The position numbers and the translations under genes are program-made. A DNA stretch of 64,000 nt from an uncultured Candidatus Saccharibacteria bacterium (GTDB lineage Bacteria > Patescibacteriota > Minisyncoccia > Phycocordibacterales > DATDWN01). The notes beneath the pieces were generated by a model that made no database searches, was not told the DNA's origin, and saw nothing but the letters and a program-made list of their open reading frames with translations. Shown piece by piece: positions 23,894 to 53,366 of this stretch (within the stretch, counting starts at the first letter, position 1; the number at the start of each line of letters is the position of its first letter). Location of the stretch: positions 4,535 through 68,534 of the forward strand of contig CAZKCA010000003.1 of NCBI GenBank assembly GCA_964551495.1, read 5' to 3'.

Positions 23894-26242
23894 ATGGCAA
23901 AAGAAAAGAATCAAAAAGTAGCCCTACTCGATGTTCACGCTATACTTCACAGGGCATACCATGCTTTACCGGATTTTAAATCTAGTAAAGGAGAACCGAC
24001 AGGAGCTTTGTATGGTCTTTGTACTTTTTTGATAAAACTAATTAAAGATGTGGAGCCAGATTATATTTTGGCTTGTTTTGATCTACCTGAAAAAACAGAA
24101 AGACATGAAATGTATGAAGATTATAAAGCTGGTAGAAAAAAAGCTGATGACGAACTTGTTTTTCAATTAGAAAAATCGAAAGAAGTTTTTGAAGCTCTAA
24201 GTATTCCAATGTTTTCTTCTAAAGGTTTTGAGGCTGATGATATGCTTGGAACAATAGTTGAGCAGATGAAGGATAAAGATTATGACATCATAATTGCTTC
24301 GGGGGACATGGATACAATGCAACTTGTTTCTGGTAAAAAAGTAAGAGTTTATACTTTGAAAAAAGGCATCAAAGATACTGTTATATATGATGAGGATGCT
24401 GTTATTGAAAGGTTTGGTTTTGAACCAAAATATTTGGCTGATTTTAAAGGACTAAGAGGTGATCCTTCTGACAATATTGTTGGTATTTCAGGTATTGGAG
24501 AAAAAACAGCAACAGAGCTTATTGTAAAGTTTGGAAGTCTAGAGGATATTTATAAAAAACTAAAAACAAGTGAAGAAATTTTTATAAAAGCAGGAATTAA
24601 AAAAAGAACAGTAGATCTTTTGAAAGATGGAGAAGAAGAGGCGATGTTTTCAAAGATGTTAGCAACAATAAGACGTGATGCTCCTATTTTTGTTTCCTTA
24701 AATGATCATAGGTGGAGTAAAGATGTTTCTATGGATAAGGTAGAAACCTTGTTTAGAGAGCTAGAGTTCAAAACTCTTGGTCAAAAATTGGCCGAGGTTT
24801 TGTCTATAAAAATAGAGTCAAAAAATAATATAGAAGAAAAAGCTGAAGATATAGAAGAGACCAAACTGCTTCTCTGGATTATAGATTCAAATAAAACCAA
24901 TCCTTCTGTTTCAGATATTTATTCTTATACACATAAAGACAATTTAACAGAGGCTAAAAAAGTTTTAGAGAAGATAATAAAAGATCAAAACCTTGAATTT
25001 GTTTTGGATCAAATAGAAAAACCACTTATGCCAATAACAAAAGAAATGAAAGATATTGGTGTAAAAATAGATACGGTTGGTTTAAAAGATCTATCAAATA
25101 AATATCATAAAAAATTATCTGAGTTAGAGAAGAAAATATGGAAGTTGGCAGGAGAAGAGTTTAATATAAATTCTCCAAAACAGTTAGGGGAAATTTTGTT
25201 TGTTAAATTAGGTTTGAAGGTAAAAAATCAAAAGAAAACAGCTGGAGGTAGTTTTTCCACTAAAGAATCAGAACTTGAAAAACTAAAAGAGGAACATAAA
25301 ATTGCTGAATACATTTTAGAATATAGAGAATTAGCTAAACTTTTAGGTACATATATAGACACCATTCCTACTCAAGTAGATGATAAAGGTAGACTGCATG
25401 CAGATTTTATCCAAACAGGGTCTACTACTGGTAGAATGGCTTCTAGTAATCCAAATTTACAAAATATTCCAAATAAAACAGATTTGGGAAGGGAAATAAG
25501 AAAATCTTTTGTAACAGAAAAAGGATGGAAACTTGTTTCTTTTGATTATTCTCAAATAGAACTTCGTATTGCCGCTTTCCTTTCGGGTGATAAAAAGTTG
25601 ATCGAAATTTTTAATAAAGGAGAAGATATTCATACAGCTGTTGCCTCTGAAGTTTTTGGTGTTAACAAAGAGCAAGTTACAAAAGAAATGAGAAGTCATG
25701 CTAAGGTCATAAATTTTGGGGTTATGTATGGTATGGGTGTTTTGGCTTTGAAACAAAATCTAGGAACCTCTAAAGAGGAAGCTCAAGAATTTTTAGATGG
25801 TTACTTTAATAAATTTAATGGTTTGGCAGAATATTTAGAAAATATAAAAAGAGAAACCGCTCAAAGGGGTTATACCGAAACTTTTTTTGGTCGCAGAAGG
25901 TATTTTCCAGAGATTAGATCAAAACTTCCTTTTATGAAAGCCTCTGCTGAAAGAATGGCTATAAATGCACCAATACAAGGAACAGAAGCAGATATTATAA
26001 AACTAGCTATGGTAAAAGTAGATAATTTTTTGAAGCAAAAAAATTTAAAAAACGAAGTTCGTCTTTTATTGCAAGTTCATGATGAGTTGGTTTATGAGAT
26101 AAAAGATAATATTGTTACAGCTGTTGCTTCTGAGGTTAAGAATATTATGGAATCCATAATAGATCCAAAAAAGACCCACGGTGTTGTTTGTGTTGCAGAG
26201 GCTTCTTTTGGTGATAATTGGGCAGAGATGGAAAAAATATGA
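23894..26242 (+). CDS. polA: DNA polymerase I (5'-3' exonuclease plus polymerase domains)
   Basis: N-terminal FEN-like domain, family A polymerase motif A (region DYSQIELR), motif B (KVINFGVMYGMG) and motif C (LLQVHDELVYE). Confidence 0.9.
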   Translation: MAKEKNQKVALLDVHAILHRAYHALPDFKSSKGEPTGALYGLCTFLIKLIKDVEPDYILACFDLPEKTERHEMYEDYKAGRKKADDELVFQLEKSKEVFEALSIPMFSSKGFEADDMLGTIVEQMKDKDYDIIIASGDMDTMQLVSGKKVRVYTLKKGIKDTVIYDEDAVIERFGFEPKYLADFKGLRGDPSDNIVGISGIGEKTATELIVKFGSLEDIYKKLKTSEEIFIKAGIKKRTVDLLKDGEEEAMFSKMLATIRRDAPIFVSLNDHRWSKDVSMDKVETLFRELEFKTLGQKLAEVLSIKIESKNNIEEKAEDIEETKLLLWIIDSNKTNPSVSDIYSYTHKDNLTEAKKVLEKIIKDQNLEFVLDQIEKPLMPITKEMKDIGVKIDTVGLKDLSNKYHKKLSELEKKIWKLAGEEFNINSPKQLGEILFVKLGLKVKNQKKTAGGSFSTKESELEKLKEEHKIAEYILEYRELAKLLGTYIDTIPTQVDDKGRLHADFIQTGSTTGRMASSNPNLQNIPNKTDLGREIRKSFVTEKGWKLVSFDYSQIELRIAAFLSGDKKLIEIFNKGEDIHTAVASEVFGVNKEQVTKEMRSHAKVINFGVMYGMGVLALKQNLGTSKEEAQEFLDGYFNKFNGLAEYLENIKRETAQRGYTETFFGRRRYFPEIRSKLPFMKASAERMAINAPIQGTEADIIKLAMVKVDNFLKQKNLKNEVRLLLQVHDELVYEIKDNIVTAVASEVKNIMESIIDPKKTHGVVCVAEASFGDNWAEMEKI

Positions 26243-26952
26243 TTTATTTTTTGTATGGTAATGATAAATTTTCTTCCAGAAAAAAGATGCACAGCATCTT
26301 GGATGCTTTGTGTAAAAAAAGACCTGATGCCGAAATATTTAAAATAAATACTGAAAATTTTGATTATTCTAAATTCGAGGAACTCATTTTTTCCCAAGGG
26401 CTTTTTGATTCAAAGTATATAGTAGTAACAGATAATTTGTTTGAAGATAAAAATATAAAAGATTTTTTTATTGAAAAATTACCATTTATCAAAGACTCTG
26501 CCAATGTTTTTGTTTCTTTGGAGAGCAAAGTGGATGTAAAAAGTTTAAAAGATATAGAAAAATATTCAGAAAAAGTCCAGGAATTCTCTACCAAAGAAGA
26601 TGGTAAAAAATTTTTTAATGTGTTTGGGATAACTGATGGTATTTTAGAAAAAGACAAAAAAAGACTTTGGATTGATTATTTGAAAACAATACAAGAAGGT
26701 ATCCCTTCGGAAGAGTTGCATGGTATTATATTTTGGCAAGTAAAAAATATGGCCATTGTTTCAAAAGTTGACAGTCAAAAAGATTGTGATTTGACTCCTT
26801 ATCAATATAAAAATGCTTTATCTGGAAGTAGAAACTATAAAGATCAGGATATAGAAAGGATGATGTCGGATTTGGTTTCTATGACCCACAAAGTCAGGTC
26901 TGGCGAAGGGGATTTAGATATTATGCTAGAGAAGTGGATTTTAGGTTTGTAA
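26239..26952 (+). CDS. holA: DNA polymerase III delta subunit-like (HolA-like)
   Basis: N-terminal MIYFLYGNDKFSSRKK resembles the delta-subunit start (IYLLYGEDEFL). Position after polA. Weak. Confidence 0.4.
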   Translation: MIYFLYGNDKFSSRKKMHSILDALCKKRPDAEIFKINTENFDYSKFEELIFSQGLFDSKYIVVTDNLFEDKNIKDFFIEKLPFIKDSANVFVSLESKVDVKSLKDIEKYSEKVQEFSTKEDGKKFFNVFGITDGILEKDKKRLWIDYLKTIQEGIPSEELHGIIFWQVKNMAIVSKVDSQKDCDLTPYQYKNALSGSRNYKDQDIERMMSDLVSMTHKVRSGEGDLDIMLEKWILGL

Positions 26953-26982
26953 AAGACCCGTGTTAAGCGGGTCTTGTTTCTT
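26951..26982 (+). terminator. intrinsic terminator
   Basis: AAGACCCGTGTTAAGCGGGTCTTGTTTCTTC. Confidence 0.65.
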
Positions 26983-27457
26983 CTCCAACCATGAATTGGA
27001 TTGCCTTTTTGCCAACCGCTTTTACAATAAGCGGTGTGCTGAAGATCATTCCAATCAGGATCAGTCCTGCAAATTTCAGGTATTTTTTGGTCACGAAATC
27101 CTCCAAGTAAATGTTTACATATTTTAGAGAGAGAGTAAAGATAGGGTATGAAAGAAAAAATTGGTAGGATATCTTGTGGTCACAAATAAATTTCTGCTGA
27201 AATTTTTCGCGACCCCGGCTCGGCCCGTCGGCCTGCGCCTCGCACCAGTAAACAAAAACAGCAGGACTTCGACCCTTACAGGGTCAGTACCCCAATTGGA
27301 TATTTTTGTTCAAAATTTGTGTGTCCTGGATAATTTTCTCACCGACGTTCGAAAATTTCCTCGGACCCTGACCTCGCGACCAGTCGTGCCCGACTGGTGC
27401 CCGCTCCGGTCCGCACACGTAAACAAAAACAGCATAATATGCTGTTTTTGAATCGTG

Positions 27458-27530
27458 TGCGCCCGGCAGGAATCGAACCTGCGACCATCTCCTTAAAAGG
27501 GAGCTGCTCTACCGACTGAGCTACGGGCGC
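27458..27530 (-). tRNA. tRNA-Lys (anticodon TTT)
   Basis: Full cloverleaf on the minus strand. Acceptor GCGCCCG/CGGGCGC, anticodon loop CTTTTAA, T-loop GGTTCGATTCC. A downstream hairpin plus T-run terminator sits at about 27425-27450. Confidence 0.9.
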
Positions 27531-27802
27531 AAAATGCTTTAGAAAATCAAACTACTTTAATTTTCTATTACTTCTGCGGGTCACAGCCATGTTTTGCTAC
27601 CAAGCAAAACAGGCGAGGTGAGAAGTGATATTATCACTTCGCAAGACCTTGAACACCTGTAATCAGGTGGGGAAGGTATACCGCACATGTAATTTTGGGT
27701 CGTGGAAATTTTCTTGTGACGACAAGAAAATTATCCCTGACCAAAATTACTATAAATATTAACTCTAAGAAATATACCAAATAAAAACAAATTGTCCAAT
27801 AA

Positions 27803-28144
27803 TTATAGAGGTAAATCAAAAGCTAAAAATCCTGGACCGGTGAAGAGCAGTGAAAATAGGACTGTGATAATCAAAAAATAAATATAGAAGTTTGGCTTTT
27901 CTCCACTTTTTTTATTTATATAGTAATCTACTTTTGCTAAAACTATTGCTACAAGAACAGCCACTTGTGTAAATAGCCCAATAAAAATAAACATACTTGT
28001 TATTATGTAAAATACAGATAACCATTTGTATGGTTTTTTTAATCTCTCTAATCCATATTTTAATCCAACAACAGAAACTGCAATTCTTATTAAAAAAGGC
28101 GATAGTATCCCAAAAGTTAGCAGATCTGGAAATATTGAAAGCAT
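27803..28144 (-). CDS. small integral membrane protein (hypothetical)
   Basis: Three predicted TM helices. Confidence 0.4.
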   Translation of the reverse strand: MLSIFPDLLTFGILSPFLIRIAVSVVGLKYGLERLKKPYKWLSVFYIITSMFIFIGLFTQVAVLVAIVLAKVDYYINKKSGEKPNFYIYFLIITVLFSLLFTGPGFLAFDLPL

Positions 28145-28197: not shown

Positions 28198-28671
28198 ATG
28201 AAAAAAGAGGTATTTGTTTTGCTTCACAACATAAGAAGCATTCATAATGTTGGTTCTATTTTTAGGACAGCAAGCGCTTTGGGTGTGTCTAAAATATACT
28301 TATCTGGTTTTACTCCTACACCAACAGATCGTTTTGGCAAAAAAAGAAGTGATTTTGCTAAAGTTGCTTTAGGGTCTGAAGAGGTGATTGAATGGAAATA
28401 TGAAGATGATCCAATTAAGCTTTTGAAAAATTTAAAAAAAGAAGGAGTTTGTGTTGTTTCTGTAGAACAAGATAAAAAATCTGTTGATTATAAAAAAATA
28501 AAAATTAAATACCCTGTTGTTTTTATGGTAGGTGAGGAAACAAAAGGGATAGATAAAAATATTTTGAAAATTTCAGATTATATAGCTGAAATACCAATGA
28601 AAGGGAACAAAGAGTCTTTAAATGTTTCTGTGGCTTTTGGGGTGGCTTTGTTTAGGATTTTAGGTCTTTAG
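28198..28671 (+). CDS. SpoU-class tRNA/rRNA 2'-O-methyltransferase (TrmL-like)
   Basis: 157 aa. N-terminal LHNIRSIHNVGSIFRTASALG is the SPOUT motif 1, and the C-terminal motifs are consistent with TrmL/TrmH. Confidence 0.6.
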   Translation: MKKEVFVLLHNIRSIHNVGSIFRTASALGVSKIYLSGFTPTPTDRFGKKRSDFAKVALGSEEVIEWKYEDDPIKLLKNLKKEGVCVVSVEQDKKSVDYKKIKIKYPVVFMVGEETKGIDKNILKISDYIAEIPMKGNKESLNVSVAFGVALFRILGL

Positions 28672-31785: not shown

Positions 31786-32065
31786 CAAATTTGTTGTTTA
31801 GGTAGGTTGTAAATCTAAAGAAAAGCAAATCATTGCTTGGTAGGAAATTCGTCACCAGCTCTCTCTTTGCTGTCCGCCTTGTTGTCGAGACAGGTCGCAA
31901 AATTGATAGGAATCGATCCTTACAGGGGGAGTACCCCAATTGGATATTTTTTTTCGTAAACTCCAAAAATATCGCAATCGGGCTTCGATTCCTAACGAAA
32001 AGCAATAACATTGTTTTTCTCCGAGAGCACAATAATAAAACCCCTGAAAGGGTGTTTTATTATTG

Positions 32066-34325: not shown

Positions 34326-34705
34326 AATCCTAATTATAACTTATGGGGCTATAATCGGAAGGGGAAAAGAAAAAACACCTGAAGGTGTTTTTTGCGGAGG
34401 AGGTGAGATTCTCCCTCGACTCAAATACTCGCCGTCTCTCGTATTTGGTCTGGGCACCGACTCACAACCCATTGCTCTCGATGGGTGCCCGCTCTGTCGT
34501 TCGAATCTCACCTCCTCATTTAGACAAACAAAAAATTCCTAATACCTCAATCGGTATTAGGAATTTCCGTTGCGGTGTACTCGGGTATGGTACCCCACAC
34601 TCCAAGCCTTGTAAGGCTATTTTAGCGCATTTGAGATGAGAAGAAAAAGGTTTGTGGGTCGGGTCTCTTTTCTGAGCATGAGACATCTAAGGGGGTTAGT
34701 GAGCT

Positions 34706-43857: not shown

Positions 43858-44949
43858 TCATTTGTTGTAGGTATAACTCTGGCGAACCAAAGGAATGGCT
43901 TTCTCTAGGTCTGCCTCGCTCTCAATCTTTACCTCATAGTCTCCGTTGCCCCAATGACCTATGGGCTTGGGTTTGGTGAGGTCGCGAGCGATATTTTCTG
44001 GATCATCGAGGTGTCCGCTCGGCACGTTCAAAAAGATTTTTAGTGAATCGCGAAGCACTACCACGTCACAGAAATTAGTGGTGAGCTTGTACGCTATATA
44101 TTTTGCTTTGGCTTCCTCAATAATTGATTCATCTAGAGTGGAGATCTGCTCCTTGAGAGAAGAGAATAATCTTTGTGCGTCTGGACTCGCAGATCTTACA
44201 TGATCATCAACGGTATAGTGGATTTTATCTTTGAATACGCGTTTCTGTTTTTCTCCCTGCTCAAATACCTCCGATGTTGAGATCTTCACTTTACGCTGGA
44301 CTTCCGGTTCAACGAGAAGCAGGTCGTGGTCATATAACTGATATCGAAGCAACTCAATATTCATCGGCAGCAGATCGGCAGTATCCAAATCAAACTTGTT
44401 GTAGCTTTCAGCAACGCAGATCACTCGTGGCGATGCCCAGTCAATCTCGATATCAATTTCCTTTCTTCGTACCAACGCCTCGAAATCCGCCTTATGATCC
44501 AAAAGCCAGCGGAGATATGACAGACCTTGGTTGATAACACTATCGTTTTGACCCTTCTTGTATTCGATGATCACCGGCGACCCATTGTTGTCTATACCTA
44601 GACTATCTATTCTTCCGCCGAAGCTAGTGGAGTATTCGGTAGCCAAAAATTTGATATTCAAAATCTCATCCAAATTTTTCTCGAAGAGTTTTTGTATGTC
44701 TTTTTCTAGTCCCACCTTCGTTGGAGGGACTTTCGTTGCAGTTTGATTGTGAGTAATAAAAATGGCCATGAGGTTCATGGCGCGGGGTTGGTGCATATAC
44801 ACTAAGCCCCACGCTAGCTTTAGGTCTTGCGACCCCATACAAGTTTCCCTGTATGGCCCGATGAAGAGTCGCTGAACGTGGGGTTCAGTATCTTCATCGG
44901 GACTTTGGGCCATGCCCGCCGGAAATCCGGACGAGTTTAGGCCGCTCAT
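43858..44949 (-). CDS. PD-(D/E)xK nuclease-like protein (DUF-type, possible restriction/defence-related)
   Basis: The segment GGRIDSLGIDNNGSPVIIEYKKG fits a D...EYK nuclease core. About 360 aa. Adjacent to the recombinase. Confidence 0.4.
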   Translation of the reverse strand: MSGLNSSGFPAGMAQSPDEDTEPHVQRLFIGPYRETCMGSQDLKLAWGLVYMHQPRAMNLMAIFITHNQTATKVPPTKVGLEKDIQKLFEKNLDEILNIKFLATEYSTSFGGRIDSLGIDNNGSPVIIEYKKGQNDSVINQGLSYLRWLLDHKADFEALVRRKEIDIEIDWASPRVICVAESYNKFDLDTADLLPMNIELLRYQLYDHDLLLVEPEVQRKVKISTSEVFEQGEKQKRVFKDKIHYTVDDHVRSASPDAQRLFSSLKEQISTLDESIIEEAKAKYIAYKLTTNFCDVVVLRDSLKIFLNVPSGHLDDPENIARDLTKPKPIGHWGNGDYEVKIESEADLEKAIPLVRQSYTYNK

Positions 44950-53163: not shown

Positions 53164-53276
53164 TACATTGGTACATACAAAAAGAGCGATTACTTCGCTC
53201 TTTTTGTATACAACACAGCTTTGTGGGTCACAGCTCAACGTCGAGCTTGTGGGTTGCCAAAACTAATAAGTTCTCT

Positions 53277-53366
53277 TGGCGGAGGAGGTGAGATTCGAAC
53301 TCACGGTCCCCGTAAAGAGACTCCTGTTTTCAAGACAGGTGCAATCGACCACTCTGCCACTCCTCC
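53277..53366 (-). tRNA. tRNA-Ser (anticodon TGA), CCA encoded. This is the island's integration target.
   Basis: Minus-strand type II tRNA with acceptor GGAGGAG/CTCCTCC, anticodon loop CTTGAAA, a long variable arm, and T-arm GTGAGTTCGAATCTCAC. Its 3' 18 nt are duplicated at 34394-34411. Confidence 0.9.

Follow-up and report, generated by a model that had tools for sequence, protein, structure and literature searches.

A GC-rich, hairpin-rich region around a tRNA-Lys gene in the window (the whole stretch of 64,000 nucleotides, or 64 kb, analysed here) appears from its sequence to be a patchwork of partly decayed hairpin-rich modules, which belong to a family widespread behind the tRNA genes of Paceibacterota (CPR bacteria). 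The cores of the two module types, A and B, covary strongly, and the element family is absent from Rfam 15. The explanation that we favour, with moderate confidence, is that these are multi-copy structured RNA modules that ride on Paceibacterota tRNA transcription units and turn over fast; its main rival is a selfish DNA repeat. Rather than one functional RNA of 570 nt, the copies at tRNA-Lys most likely represent relics in decay or by-products of processing.

The region around tRNA-Lys is non-coding and structured

The tRNA-Lys(UUU) gene lies at 27457-27530 on the minus strand (ARAGORN; 74.2 bits with the Rfam tRNA model) and does not encode its CCA. The surrounding interval, 27172-27745, is non-coding and GC-rich. 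A first-pass annotation had described ~570 bp here as rich in GC, devoid of a credible ORF and filled with multiple hairpins, and all three points were borne out. GC content is 0.40-0.58 per 100-nt window over 27150-27750, as against ~0.30 (0.20-0.36 in the coding flanks). Only short ORFs are found across the region, the longest named being 96 aa at 27161-27451; neither this ORF, which runs over the repeats, nor a nearby one of 47 aa has a Pfam match, and a protein-coding reading was rejected. The three hairpins that had been quoted are all present, and both flanks of the tRNA outfold dinucleotide shuffles on both strands (z = -8.8 and -9.2 for 27531-27745; -6.9 and -5.4 for 27176-27456). Across 27473-27800, locus L082 of a second, independent assembly (Logan SRR12989705) agrees with the window at 100% identity, which excludes an assembly artefact for this part.

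The region had also been seen as bracketed by matching segments. Inverted repeats do flank tRNA-Lys (27172-27194 with 27705-27727, 23 nt, 87%; 27323-27363 with 27701-27741, 41 nt, 73%), but they do not form one terminal-repeat pair, and the pair GGATAATTTTCT / AGAAAATTATCC, which had been placed in 27180-27215, actually lies at 27329-27340 and 27725-27736. The apparent bracket arises because copies of a ~90-nt module sit in opposite orientation on either side of the tRNA gene.

Architecture of the family and its tie to tRNA genes

Two models are defined here: R1 for module A, the tRNA-trailing element, and R2 for module B. Besides the window, ~95 metagenome contigs and 11 of 31 syntenic Paceibacterota loci have modules beside tRNA genes. 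A 19-mer from hairpin hp3 of module A has 126 matches in metagenome contigs, and in 68 non-redundant cases a tRNA gene of the same strand lies 75-400 nt upstream; at least 14 isotypes are covered. In the family, the tRNA gene has downstream of it, in many cases beyond a palindromic terminator-type hairpin, an arm S' that is split by hairpin hp1; next comes the core, and last S*, which repeats the tRNA 3' end in direct orientation. Read in reverse complement, S' corresponds to positions ~54-74 of its own tRNA (T loop, T-stem 3' strand, acceptor 3' strand and discriminator; this stretch of the tRNA itself is denoted S), and the GC-rich hp1 interrupts it precisely at the acceptor/T-stem junction. 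The module A core consists of helix P3, the AU-rich hairpin hp2, which has a tandem G·A internal loop in the sequences inspected, and hp3, which reads CUG-stem-UGUAA-stem-CGA with a conserved U·G. Module B is an alternative core of ~90 nt with the pattern GnC-GGAG-hairpin-CGAGnCnGGGUCG-AU hairpin-yGUGACC and a conserved G·U. In the copies inspected, both ends of the core coincide with TCGA.

The arms are specific to the neighbouring tRNA. In 80% of elements, at least 11 of the 12 positions in the complement of T loop plus T stem match the element's own tRNA, compared with 5.7% for other isotypes; for the direct 14-mer, a match at 13 or more of 14 positions is seen in 31% of elements, compared with 0.1%. 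S and S* disagree at 69 positions; at 60 of these S' goes with the tRNA, and at 3 with S*. S* decays freely while S' tracks the tRNA, suggesting that a tRNA-like S':S* closing helix is not strongly maintained. All R1 and R2 matches in the 64 kb, and R2 matches in 350 kb of relatives, adjoin tRNA genes or bear tRNA-derived arms, as do those R1 matches in relatives that were inspected. Elements are borne by a subset of tRNAs only, one that differs between relatives, and in the copies inspected by eye cores from one genome resemble each other more than cores from one isotype do.

The tRNA-Lys unit

Upstream of tRNA-Lys stands a promoter-like site, TGGACA-16-TATATT, whose second hexamer is preceded by TG (27771-27798, minus strand; 10 of 12 positions match); the motif TTGGAC...TATATT is also found upstream of tRNA-Lys in the aligned relatives L001 and L003. 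The 5' leader of ~240 nt carries module B copy 1 (27574-27745, plus strand), with R2 matches at 27672-27742 (43.7 bits, E = 5.7e-9) and 27580-27640 (17.2 bits). Because this copy is inverted between promoter and tRNA, it would be antisense in the predicted leader transcript. It is cut into two by a 78-nt insertion (27619-27696, no strand assigned) that is missing from L003 and L001; the L003 counterpart is uninterrupted (85.1 bits), and L001 has the 3' hairpin only (50.1 bits). The insertion holds the hairpins GAAGTGATAATATCACTTC and CACCTGATTACAGGTG together with a segment that had been likened to RNase P RNA; it has no homologue in the fetched loci besides the identical assembly L082, and no Rfam match. 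Directly 5' of the tRNA lies an AU-rich leader hairpin (27540-27567, minus strand; inverted repeat I8, also seen in the fold), which is partly conserved in L003.

Right after the tRNA come an AU-rich palindromic hairpin and a U tract (27424-27450, minus strand; inverted repeat I4, 13 nt, 100% complementary, also seen in the fold). This hairpin occupies the place of the family's bidirectional terminator, with TTTTTG after the palindrome; it is weak and AU-rich and was not called in the terminator scan. The rest of the 3' trailer is made up of two module B copies and a module A without P3, all on the minus strand. Module B copy 2 (27322-27423; R2 match 27322-27411, 40.8 bits, E = 2.9e-8) starts with GTGTGCGG, the decayed remnant of an arm complementary to the tRNA-Lys acceptor 3' strand, and its first hairpin is the GC-rich ACCAGTCGGGCACGACTGGT. 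The degenerate module A core (27261-27321; R1 match 27266-27360, 33.6 bits, E = 3.8e-8, P3 deleted) retains the hp2 stump, the motif AUAUCCAAUUGGGGUA and an intact hp3, CUGACCCUGUAAGGGUCGA (27269-27287), whereas helix P3 is gone and the place of hp1 has been taken by a module B hairpin. It contains the exact 19-mer and shares a 14-mer with the tRNA-Arg element described below, and its R1 match ends 97 nt 3' of tRNA-Lys on the same strand. AGUCCUGC at 27261-27268 is a remnant direct copy of the T-stem 3' strand, and the arms of this copy survive as decayed remnants only, GTGTGCGGACCGG and AGTCCTGC. Module B copy 3 (27172-27260; R2 match 27178-27239, 54.8 bits, E = 1.1e-11; direct repeat D1) is preceded by a second copy of CUGCUGUUUUUGUUUAC, starts with UGGUGCGAGG and ends with GUGACCACAAG. 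The flanking genes encode PolA, a HolA-like protein, a 113-aa membrane protein, SpoU, a protein with a lamin tail domain (LTD) and Fpg.

Other family members in the window

A near-complete module A stands behind tRNA-Arg(GCG) at 31905-32064 on the minus strand (R1 match 31910-32022, 67.4 bits, E = 1.8e-18; k-mer matches to its own tRNA), the R1 match ending 43 nt 3' of the tRNA on the same strand. Its parts follow in the order terminator hairpin (32031-32064), GUGCUCUCGG, hp1, UAGGAAUCGAA, P3/hp2, hp3 and GAUUCCUA. GUGCUCUCGG is the exact complement of the tRNA-Arg 3' end and UAGGAAUCGAA that of T loop plus T stem; in a check of the arms, GTGCTCTCGG and TAGGAATCGAA proved to be exact complements and GATTCCTA a direct copy. 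This copy is full length in R1, with three pairs broken in hp3. R1 matches nothing else in the 64 kb besides this copy and the degenerate one. Further along, an orphan module B with a terminator (34370-34517, minus strand; R2 match 34412-34498, 36.6 bits, E = 3e-7) has arms that are exact copies of the 3' end of tRNA-Ser(UGA), 19 nt antisense and 17 nt sense; the tRNA-Ser(UGA) gene itself lies 19 kb away, at 53277-53366. By the R2 matches given here, the window thus holds three module B copies around tRNA-Lys and one orphan.

RNA-like features of the cores

In the seed alignment of module A, 89.7% of cells are paired, compared with 67% after shuffling and 30-51% when the structure is slid, and 23 of 28 pairs change on both sides. 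Among 121 distinct model-aligned copies, 94.6% of cells are paired and 845 cells have changed on both sides; the hp3 stem covaries, and compensatory base changes are found in four helices. For module B, 94.7% are paired versus 75%, both sides change in 13 of 20 pairs, and one G·U is invariant (18 of 18). In the variable helices of module A, read on the tRNA strand, G·U outnumbers A·C by 73 to 27, indicating that module A behaves as RNA. The U·G of hp3 is present in 104 of 115 copies, and in 31 of 46 cores the sense strand folds more stably than the antisense (p = 0.004). In a terminator scan, a good terminator-like hairpin separated tRNA and element in 31 of 54 elements, and no terminator-like site lay between them in 23; such a site was found just after S* in 9 of 54 elements versus 9 of 400 control windows.

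On our preferred reading, the modules would be made as RNA from the tRNA promoter, by read-through of the tRNA-proximal hairpin or directly where that hairpin is missing. The activity would reside in the constant core, a small RNA that binds protein or functions in some other way and exists in many redundant copies. The arms, which vary with the local tRNA from which they derive, would supply pairing partners (S with S', or S' with S*), and these pairings would set the fold of the module and probably its excision from the precursor. Because copies would be redundant, single ones could be gained, nested, inverted, orphaned and lost quickly. The arms themselves may be maintained by DNA-level copying instead of RNA pairing, since mismatches between S and S' show no excess of G·U (7, versus 19 A·C). 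In the best thermodynamic fold of the full read-through transcript, the acceptor and T arms of the tRNA are broken in 22 of 22 cases, by a mean of 12.4 kcal/mol, a disruption that looks costly in these predictions.

Among the options that the first-pass annotation had left for the locus, a tRNA-associated element was correct: all structured pieces are tRNA-linked repeat modules or are inserted in them. An unrecognised ncRNA is probably right for the family, as covariation, G·U bias and the conserved U·G wobble suggest, but not as a single 570-nt RNA gene at tRNA-Lys, where the copies are mosaic and partly degenerate. The third, a reduced RNase P RNA, is dealt with below.

Rapid turnover and rival explanations

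The relatives L001, L003, L028 and L002 carry differing module sets at the same tRNA-Lys, and sites are filled in some and empty in others. Two metagenome contigs (L171 and L174) are identical as far as S* and unrelated past it, and tandem arrays of elements occur in L164. Module B is found in both orientations (copy 1 in the window, L001 and L003), and orphan modules are seen at 34412-34498 and in L024 and L021. The differing sets, the breakpoint and the arrays speak for the fast turnover that the favoured reading includes. Two-way orientation and orphans are more typical of mobile DNA.

These observations are what a selfish, non-autonomous DNA repeat, MITE-like or palindromic, would leave if it installed itself at the 3' ends of tRNA genes and its transcription were incidental. 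We hold this to be a serious but doubtful explanation. Such a repeat would duplicate the last ~21 nt of the tRNA (S...S*) and form a long quasi-palindrome, S-hairpin-S', that template switching in replication would homogenise; its hairpins would be recognised by a mobilising enzyme, possibly on single-stranded DNA. Besides the filled and empty sites, it accommodates nested insertions (the 78-nt insert included), the tandem arrays, the orphan with perfect tRNA-Ser arms 19 kb from the gene, the inverted module B, the strain-level breakpoint precisely at S* and the TCGA at both core boundaries of inspected copies. It would also fit the lack of G·U bias among S:S' mismatches and the fact that S' tracks the adjacent S, not the distal S*. 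However, the internal core is conserved and the 'terminal repeats' vary per locus, which is the reverse of MITEs; assignment to the MITEs was rejected, as the arms of module A vary per locus and copy the local tRNA, with no element-specific terminal repeats. The arms, the inverted one too, are specific to the target, and we know of no transposition chemistry that yields such arms. Among the flanking genes in the window, no transposase or integrase stands beside the elements; no short target duplication was found at the copies inspected, and free-standing module B copies have closing stems of 5-6 bp only. In IMG/VR, the hp3 19-mer has 0 matches, and 1 of 42 matches to the module B pattern is genuine, resembling a chromosomal tandem array; the same counts speak against an origin from phages or integrases. 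Finally, the 73:27 excess of G·U over A·C and the strand-specific conserved U·G and G·U wobbles point to RNA.

A more ambitious form of the RNA reading takes the elements for a programmable RNA device on Paceibacterota tRNA genes, in which a constant protein-binding core is joined to an arm complementary to the last ~21 nt of the tRNA. On read-through, the arm would unzip the acceptor and T arms, and the downstream spare copy of the 3' end would re-form them; the product would be a tRNA isoform whose T loop is replaced by a ~170-nt module, or an RNA-guided complex acting on that tRNA. This we think improbable; were it true, bacteria would possess cis-encoded, tRNA-specific guide or isoform RNAs that are without a described counterpart.

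Slightly less probable, and in our judgement unlikely, is that each element encodes, in cis, an antisense or guide RNA directed at its own tRNA, with S' (bipartite, 21 nt, flanking hp1) as the guide, the core as a protein scaffold and S* as an optional cis mask. The RNP would act on tRNA or pre-tRNA by modification, cleavage, sequestration or quality control; alternatively, read-through would give a tRNA isoform with the module in its T loop. A constant scaffold with a locus-specific complementary arm is what such a system would look like, and at 60 of 69 informative positions S' has stayed complementary to the functional tRNA while S* decays. The position of hp1 at the acceptor/T junction means that an S':tRNA duplex would make a three-way junction, the same-strand orientation makes S' antisense to the tRNA, and the full transcript is predicted to fold as a tRNA with the module on its T loop in 22 of 22 cases. 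The tandem G·A loop of hp2 and the conserved UGUAA loop of hp3, in the sequences inspected, would suit protein binding. Against this stand the lack of a G·U bias among S:S' mismatches, the decay of the arms in many copies, those in the window included, and the restriction of elements to a subset of tRNAs that varies between relatives; no candidate protein was found and, to our knowledge, RNA-guided tRNA modification is not known in bacteria.

The elements could, thirdly, be scars of integrative elements (phages, ICEs or their miniature derivatives) that recombined at the T loop and acceptor of tRNAs, S...S* being attL/attR and the core what is left of attP arms. Williams reportedly described, in 2002, T-loop crossover sites for tRNA-targeting integrases. 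Direct repeats of the tRNA 3' end do flank the insert, tandem accretion and a rearrangement breakpoint at S* were both observed, and the order S-hairpin-S'-core-S* is the one that an integrating circle carrying S* would be expected to produce. We nevertheless rate these scars as very unlikely: protein-binding att arms would not be expected to show compensatory changes in four helices or a G·U bias, one core is common to at least 14 tRNA targets (and cores look more alike within genomes than isotypes in the copies inspected), no integrase gene is nearby in the window, the viral collection is essentially negative, and the inverted arm S' is left unexplained.

A reduced RNase P RNA or another housekeeping ncRNA (tmRNA, SRP or 6S) can be set aside with near certainty: GC-richness and hairpin content favour it and nothing more, whereas Rfam 15 is silent besides tRNA, ARAGORN finds no tmRNA, and the segment concerned (27619-27696) is a lineage-specific 78-nt insertion missing from L003. 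The resemblance to P11/P12 of RNase P that had been noted there is unsupported by covariance-model scans. The Rfam scan that had been proposed for these four families gave no match: RNase P (RNaseP_bact_a / RNaseP_bact_b), tmRNA, SRP and 6S reach the gathering threshold nowhere in the whole window, and 26900-28000 has no Rfam 15 match besides tRNA on either strand up to E = 10. Likewise, tRNA alone was matched when Rfam was run over the tRNA-Arg element and four intact metagenome elements.

Several further readings were discarded. A pseudo-tRNA or inverted tRNA duplicate and, on the same grounds, a direct tandem tRNA duplicate with a T-loop cassette were rejected: only positions ~54-74 are represented, and the T-loop part is clearly a reverse complement, its variable positions 59-60 being complemented for five different loop variants. 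A retro-copy of the mature tRNA was rejected, CCA following the distal copy in 3-4 of 33 cases, about as often as by chance. The elements contain CUGA, UGAG...CGAA and a G at the 3' junction (the place of the terminal G of group I introns), motifs that brought hammerhead, box C/D, H/ACA, group I intron and T-box readings to mind; core motifs or spacings of these are missing and Rfam is silent. TIGR-Tas arrays, which consist of 36-nt dual-spacer units in long arrays beside Tas genes, differ in architecture from the tRNA-linked elements (PMC12045711), and that reading was rejected.

Discussion

Although the genomes of CPR bacteria (Patescibacteria) are tiny and leave little DNA to spare, 100-300 nt of conserved, covarying structure trails many of the tRNA genes in them. 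No RNA family database lists this element class, and a full-text search of the published literature found no description of such tRNA-linked elements; at the least, it is a large unannotated class, which inflates 'intergenic' GC and structure signals and marks rearrangement breakpoints at tRNA genes. If the cores are functional, they would constitute a small-RNA family that is new and abundant in a major lineage of uncultivated bacteria, unusual in its expression and in its matching to individual tRNAs. If the elements are mobile, arms templated on the target, inverted and direct, would imply an undescribed mechanism of insertion or copying. Existing metatranscriptomes and population metagenomes would allow both the RNA and the mobile-element readings to be put to the test.

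Small palindromic intergenic repeats of bacteria include REP/BIME, ERIC, Correia/NEMIS, RUP and the Rickettsia palindromic elements. Like these, the elements here are ~90-170 nt long, non-coding, hairpin-forming and multi-copy; they stand after genes and beside terminators, are nested, arrayed and quickly gained or lost, and are presumably co-transcribed with their neighbours. They differ in that tRNA-linked copies are confined to the flanks of tRNA genes, in outer arms that are not specific to the element but reproduce the neighbouring tRNA in inverted and direct form, and in a conserved internal core with strong covariation and strand-specific wobble pairs.

The direct repeats of tRNA 3' ends that tyrosine-integrase elements leave as attL/attR share with the elements the duplication of the segment from T loop to 3' end around an insert, tandem accretion and breakpoints at the distal copy. 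Here, in contrast, the insert is only 100-250 nt long, there is no integrase, an extra inverted copy is present and the interior shows RNA-like covariation and G·U bias. Integron attC and the attP of CTX phage are folded single-strand recombination sites; in these too, inverted repeats rebuild a duplex copy of the target, structure is conserved above sequence and side branches occur. Unlike them, the tRNA elements have no recombinase or cassette context, their one-strand conserved loops and wobbles point to RNA, and nothing links them to single-stranded DNA.

Non-coding RNAs that accompany tRNAs offer a further parallel. Kruszka is said to have described dicistronic tRNA-snoRNA genes of plants in 2003, in a work listed in PMC12045711, and the 3'ETS-leuZ of E. 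coli is an ncRNA that rides on tRNA transcription and processing. MALAT1-mascRNA likewise ties an ncRNA to tRNA-type processing (PMC8457004). As in these cases, the elements would yield a second small RNA from the tRNA unit, on the same strand and immediately downstream; in the known systems, it is split off by tRNA-type or double-strand processing. Unlike the elements here, those systems lack any copy of the tRNA 3' end, antisense or direct; none is a multi-copy family occurring across many isotypes, and they are neither mosaic nor degenerate.

A LOOT RNA is present in the same 64-kb window. LOOT, ROOL and raiA are orphan structured RNA motifs found by comparative genomics, and the elements resemble them in having a conserved, covarying structure, no assigned function and a home mainly in uncultivated bacteria (PMC5737381). 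LOOT, ROOL and raiA, however, are free-standing genes with fixed ends, whereas the elements described here carry locus-specific arms templated on the neighbouring tRNA.

Two families of tRNA-linked modules at the tRNA-Lys locus

The tRNA-Lys(UUU) gene lies on the minus strand at 27457-27530 (ARAGORN and the Rfam tRNA model), in the company of a PolA gene (23894-26242), a holA-like gene (26218-26952), the gene for a 113-aa membrane protein (27803-28144, minus strand) and a SpoU methylase gene (28198-28671). The first-pass annotation had described 27176-27745 as GC-rich, structured and free of credible ORFs, and this description holds. In 100-nt windows, GC content is 0.40-0.58 over 27150-27750 versus 0.20-0.36 in the coding flanks, an ORF and Pfam check finds no credible frame spanning the region, and predicted folds on both sides of the tRNA are far more stable than those of dinucleotide shuffles (upstream z = -8.8 and -9.2, downstream z = -6.9 and -5.4). 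The hairpins quoted are present, as are inverted repeats around the tRNA, with the quoted 12-mer pair located at 27329/27725 instead of 27180-27215. A second, independent assembly has the identical sequence from 27473 to 27800. A promoter-like TGGACA-16-TATATT at 27798-27771 (minus strand) is common to relatives; the ~240 nt from there to tRNA-Lys are thus a 5' leader. On the tRNA strand immediately 3' of the repeat modules, a small hydrophobic ORF of 43-47 aa (26963-27106, minus strand) has GGAGG 5 nt ahead of its GTG start and no Pfam match.

Relatives identified by a PolA-based search of species-representative genomes are Candidatus Paceibacterota/Parcubacteria MAGs with 53-81% PolA identity, and tRNA-Lys is syntenic in most. 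The elements downstream of their tRNA-Lys genes differ yet are recognisably akin, and reading them side by side yielded the canonical layout of what we call module A. The tRNA is followed by a palindromic A-tract/stem/U-tract hairpin; S'a, the reverse complement of the acceptor 3' strand and discriminator; AG; hp1, a GC-rich hairpin of 8-9 bp; CGU; S't, the reverse complement of the T-stem 3' strand and T loop (for example, UAGGAAUCGAA); P3, an 8-bp helix around the AU-rich hairpin hp2, which has a tandem G·A internal loop in the copies read; GUA; hp3 (CUGACCnUGUAAnGGUCGA); 2-4 nt; and S*, which repeats the T-stem 3' strand, acceptor 3' strand and discriminator in direct orientation. Another hairpin often comes next, sometimes a further unit. 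In the window, tRNA-Arg(GCG) is also trailed by this architecture, and its element has a 14-mer in common with that of tRNA-Lys (by eye, ~22 nt).

Module B is a second core that occupies the same slot between T-loop-like boundaries and also occurs free-standing, as a ~100-nt unit with a closing stem of 5-6 bp. Its pattern is GnC-GGAG-hairpin-CGAGnCnGGGUCG-AU hairpin-yGUGACC.

Module A follows the tRNA gene beside it

Metagenome contigs scanned for exact occurrences of the hp3 19-mer yielded at least 120 stretches. Among the 126 matches listed, about 95 have an extended context in common and about 25 lie inside an unrelated GC-rich coding gene. The latter are coincidental occurrences in a conserved protein gene (context gcgtcgatgccgcgctg...gatagcgcagcgcgtg; loci L095, L096, L104, L109, L121 and about 20 others), not related to the elements. 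In at least 68 non-redundant cases, the hp3 motif has a tRNA gene of the same orientation 75-400 nt upstream; these tRNAs are Lys, Arg, Ile, Gly, Glu, Pro, Val, Ser, Trp, Ala, Asn, Gln, Leu and Thr.

Element arms match their own tRNA much more closely than they match other isotypes: the complement of T loop and T stem matches at ≥11/12 positions in 80% versus 5.7%, the acceptor 9-mer complement at ≥8/9 in 47% versus 2.8%, and the direct 14-mer at ≥13/14 in 31% versus 0.1%. The T-loop arm is truly antisense, because variable positions 59-60 are complemented in 5/5 loop variants seen. In both CCA-encoding genes inspected (loci L127 and L002), the arm starts with the complement TGG and is therefore a copy of the gene, not of the mature tRNA.

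Two comparison loci have unusual tRNAs. At L156 (contig Ga0172379_10055532, 2519-2592, minus strand), a tRNA with anticodon UUA, labelled 'tRNA-Stop' by ARAGORN, resembles tRNA-Lys in its acceptor and T arm and is trailed by a module A element of its own; it may be a suppressor or recoding tRNA of an uncultivated bacterium. At L092 (about 2270-2300), a tRNA-like 3' end (GGGGTTCGATTCCCCGTGGGGCCAC) with an element behind is not called as a tRNA by ARAGORN, and may be a disrupted or insertion-bearing gene.

Covariation and wobble pairs suggest an RNA read from the tRNA strand

In the seed alignment of module A (36 sequences), 89.7% of cells are paired, versus 67% in shuffles and 30-51% in slid controls, and both-side changes occur in 23/28 pairs. 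A search with R1, the module A model, gave 121 distinct copies with 94.6% of cells paired and 845 altered on both sides; in this set, four hp3 pairs covary as well. The variable helices contain 73 G·U versus 27 A·C, the basal U·G of hp3 persists in 104/115 copies, and in 31/46 cores the sense fold is stabler than the antisense one (p = 0.004). Together, covariation, G·U excess, the kept U·G and the sense-fold bias point to an RNA read off the tRNA strand. Module B has 94.7% pairing versus 75% in shuffles, both-side changes in 13/20 pairs and one invariant G·U (18/18).

Module copies in the window

R1 matches two sites only. Behind tRNA-Arg(GCG), a full-length module A with three hp3 pairs broken (31910-32022, minus strand, 67.4 bits) and decayed pieces including AGAGAGAGC-TGGTGAC almost entirely occupy the 278-nt spacer (31787-32064) between that gene and the convergent tRNA-Thr(CGU). 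Behind tRNA-Lys, a degenerate copy (27266-27360, minus strand, 33.6 bits) keeps hp3 intact and has lost P3. The corresponding model for module B, R2, matches copy 3 (27178-27239, minus strand, 54.8 bits), copy 2 (27322-27411, minus strand, 40.8 bits) and copy 1 (27672-27742 and 27580-27640, plus strand, 43.7 and 17.2 bits), the last being one inverted copy whose halves are separated by a 78-nt insert. The span flagged at first pass, 27176-27745, extends almost precisely from where copy 3 ends to where copy 1 ends; its three hairpins are the first hairpin of copy 2, one inside the insert and the first of copy 1. The locus is made up of mosaic, partly decayed copies from two module families that covary and are linked to tRNAs.

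The stretch 34370-34640 (minus strand) contains an orphan module B (34412-34498, 36.6 bits) whose arms reproduce exactly the 3' end of tRNA-Ser(UGA). The tRNA-Ser(UGA) gene itself lies 19 kb off (53277-53366). Upstream of the orphan, GGAGTGTGGGGTACC... and then a hairpin do not form a recognisable tRNA. The tRNA-Ser(UGA) trailer (53180-53276, minus strand) has CTGTGACCCACAAAG, akin to the module B 3' end (GUGACCACAAG); this piece may be a decayed copy, and R2 gives the trailer no score at E ≤ 1.

Turnover among relatives

Compared with locus L003, the window bears a 78-nt insertion (27619-27696); compared with L001, all of 27553-27696 is extra. R1 or R2 matches occur in 11/31 syntenic Paceibacterota loci, which were not chosen by motif; all six R2 matches adjoin tRNA-Lys, two of them inverted and in the leader. 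Orphans occur in L021 (three) and in L024, where the element follows a protein gene and its arms resemble tRNA-Arg; tandem arrays occur in L164 and L208. L171 (3700-4520) and L174 (6100-7095) show 100% identity across tRNA-Arg(UCG) and its element as far as S* and share nothing beyond it, which places the rearrangement breakpoint exactly within S*. By look, in the copies inspected, core likeness is greater within a genome than within an isotype.

The tRNA 3' end (S) and S* differ at 69 positions; there, the antisense arm S' is complementary to S in 60 cases and to S* in 3. The pairing that persists is therefore between the tRNA end and S', with S* left to decay. Where S and S' fail to match, 7 mismatches are G·U and 19 A·C. 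Given this lack of a G·U excess, DNA-level copying in the quasi-palindrome S-hairpin-S' could maintain the arm as easily as RNA selection.

Discussion

We consider it about an even chance that the elements are a structured RNA, present in many copies and carried along by tRNA transcription units. In this view, the core would be the RNA itself, each arm would derive from the local tRNA, and copy redundancy would explain the quick gain and loss. Terminator-like sites lie between tRNA and element in 31/54 cases, with none in 23/54, and just 3' of S* in 9/54 elements versus 9/400 control windows.

A selfish palindromic DNA repeat is possible, if rather unlikely: it accounts for the orphans, the arrays, the two orientations and the absent G·U bias in S:S', but leaves unexplained the strand-specific wobble pattern and the combination of conserved interior and variable ends. 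We regard as doubtful a cis-encoded guide or isoform device for the tRNA. In minimum-energy folds of full tRNA-plus-element transcripts, the 5' acceptor strand pairs with the distal S* in 22/22, and a single long helix comprises S, the hairpin and S'; the mean penalty for imposing the tRNA's own acceptor stem is 12.4 kcal/mol. Formally, the predicted read-through product would be a tRNA with the module replacing its T loop. Integrase scars are improbable; in IMG/VR, the hp3 19-mer of module A had no match and 1/42 matches to the module B pattern was genuine. That the locus is a known ncRNA is close to inconceivable, as Rfam 15 had no match for intact elements and, at the locus, returned the tRNA only, at the gathering threshold and also up to E = 10. 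ARAGORN called no tmRNA; the reduced RNase P RNA suggested at first pass, with a covariance scan as the proposed check, is therefore without support, and that reading of the locus is wrong. Elsewhere in the window, 44822-44943 (minus strand) is a LOOT RNA, an orphan motif of structured RNA (Rfam RF03000; 81 bits, where the gathering score is 46.4).

Full-text literature searches turned up no published description of such elements. The elements resemble REP, ERIC and Correia-type repeats in size and dynamics, and att scars in the duplication of a tRNA 3' end. In position, they resemble hitch-hikers of the tRNA-snoRNA type (listed among the references of PMC12045711) and of the mascRNA type (PMC8457004). 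The TIGR arrays of CPR bacteria (PMC12045711) have a different architecture. Unlike the repeats, the hitch-hikers and the scars, the elements described here have target-templated inverted and direct arms that flank a conserved, covarying core.
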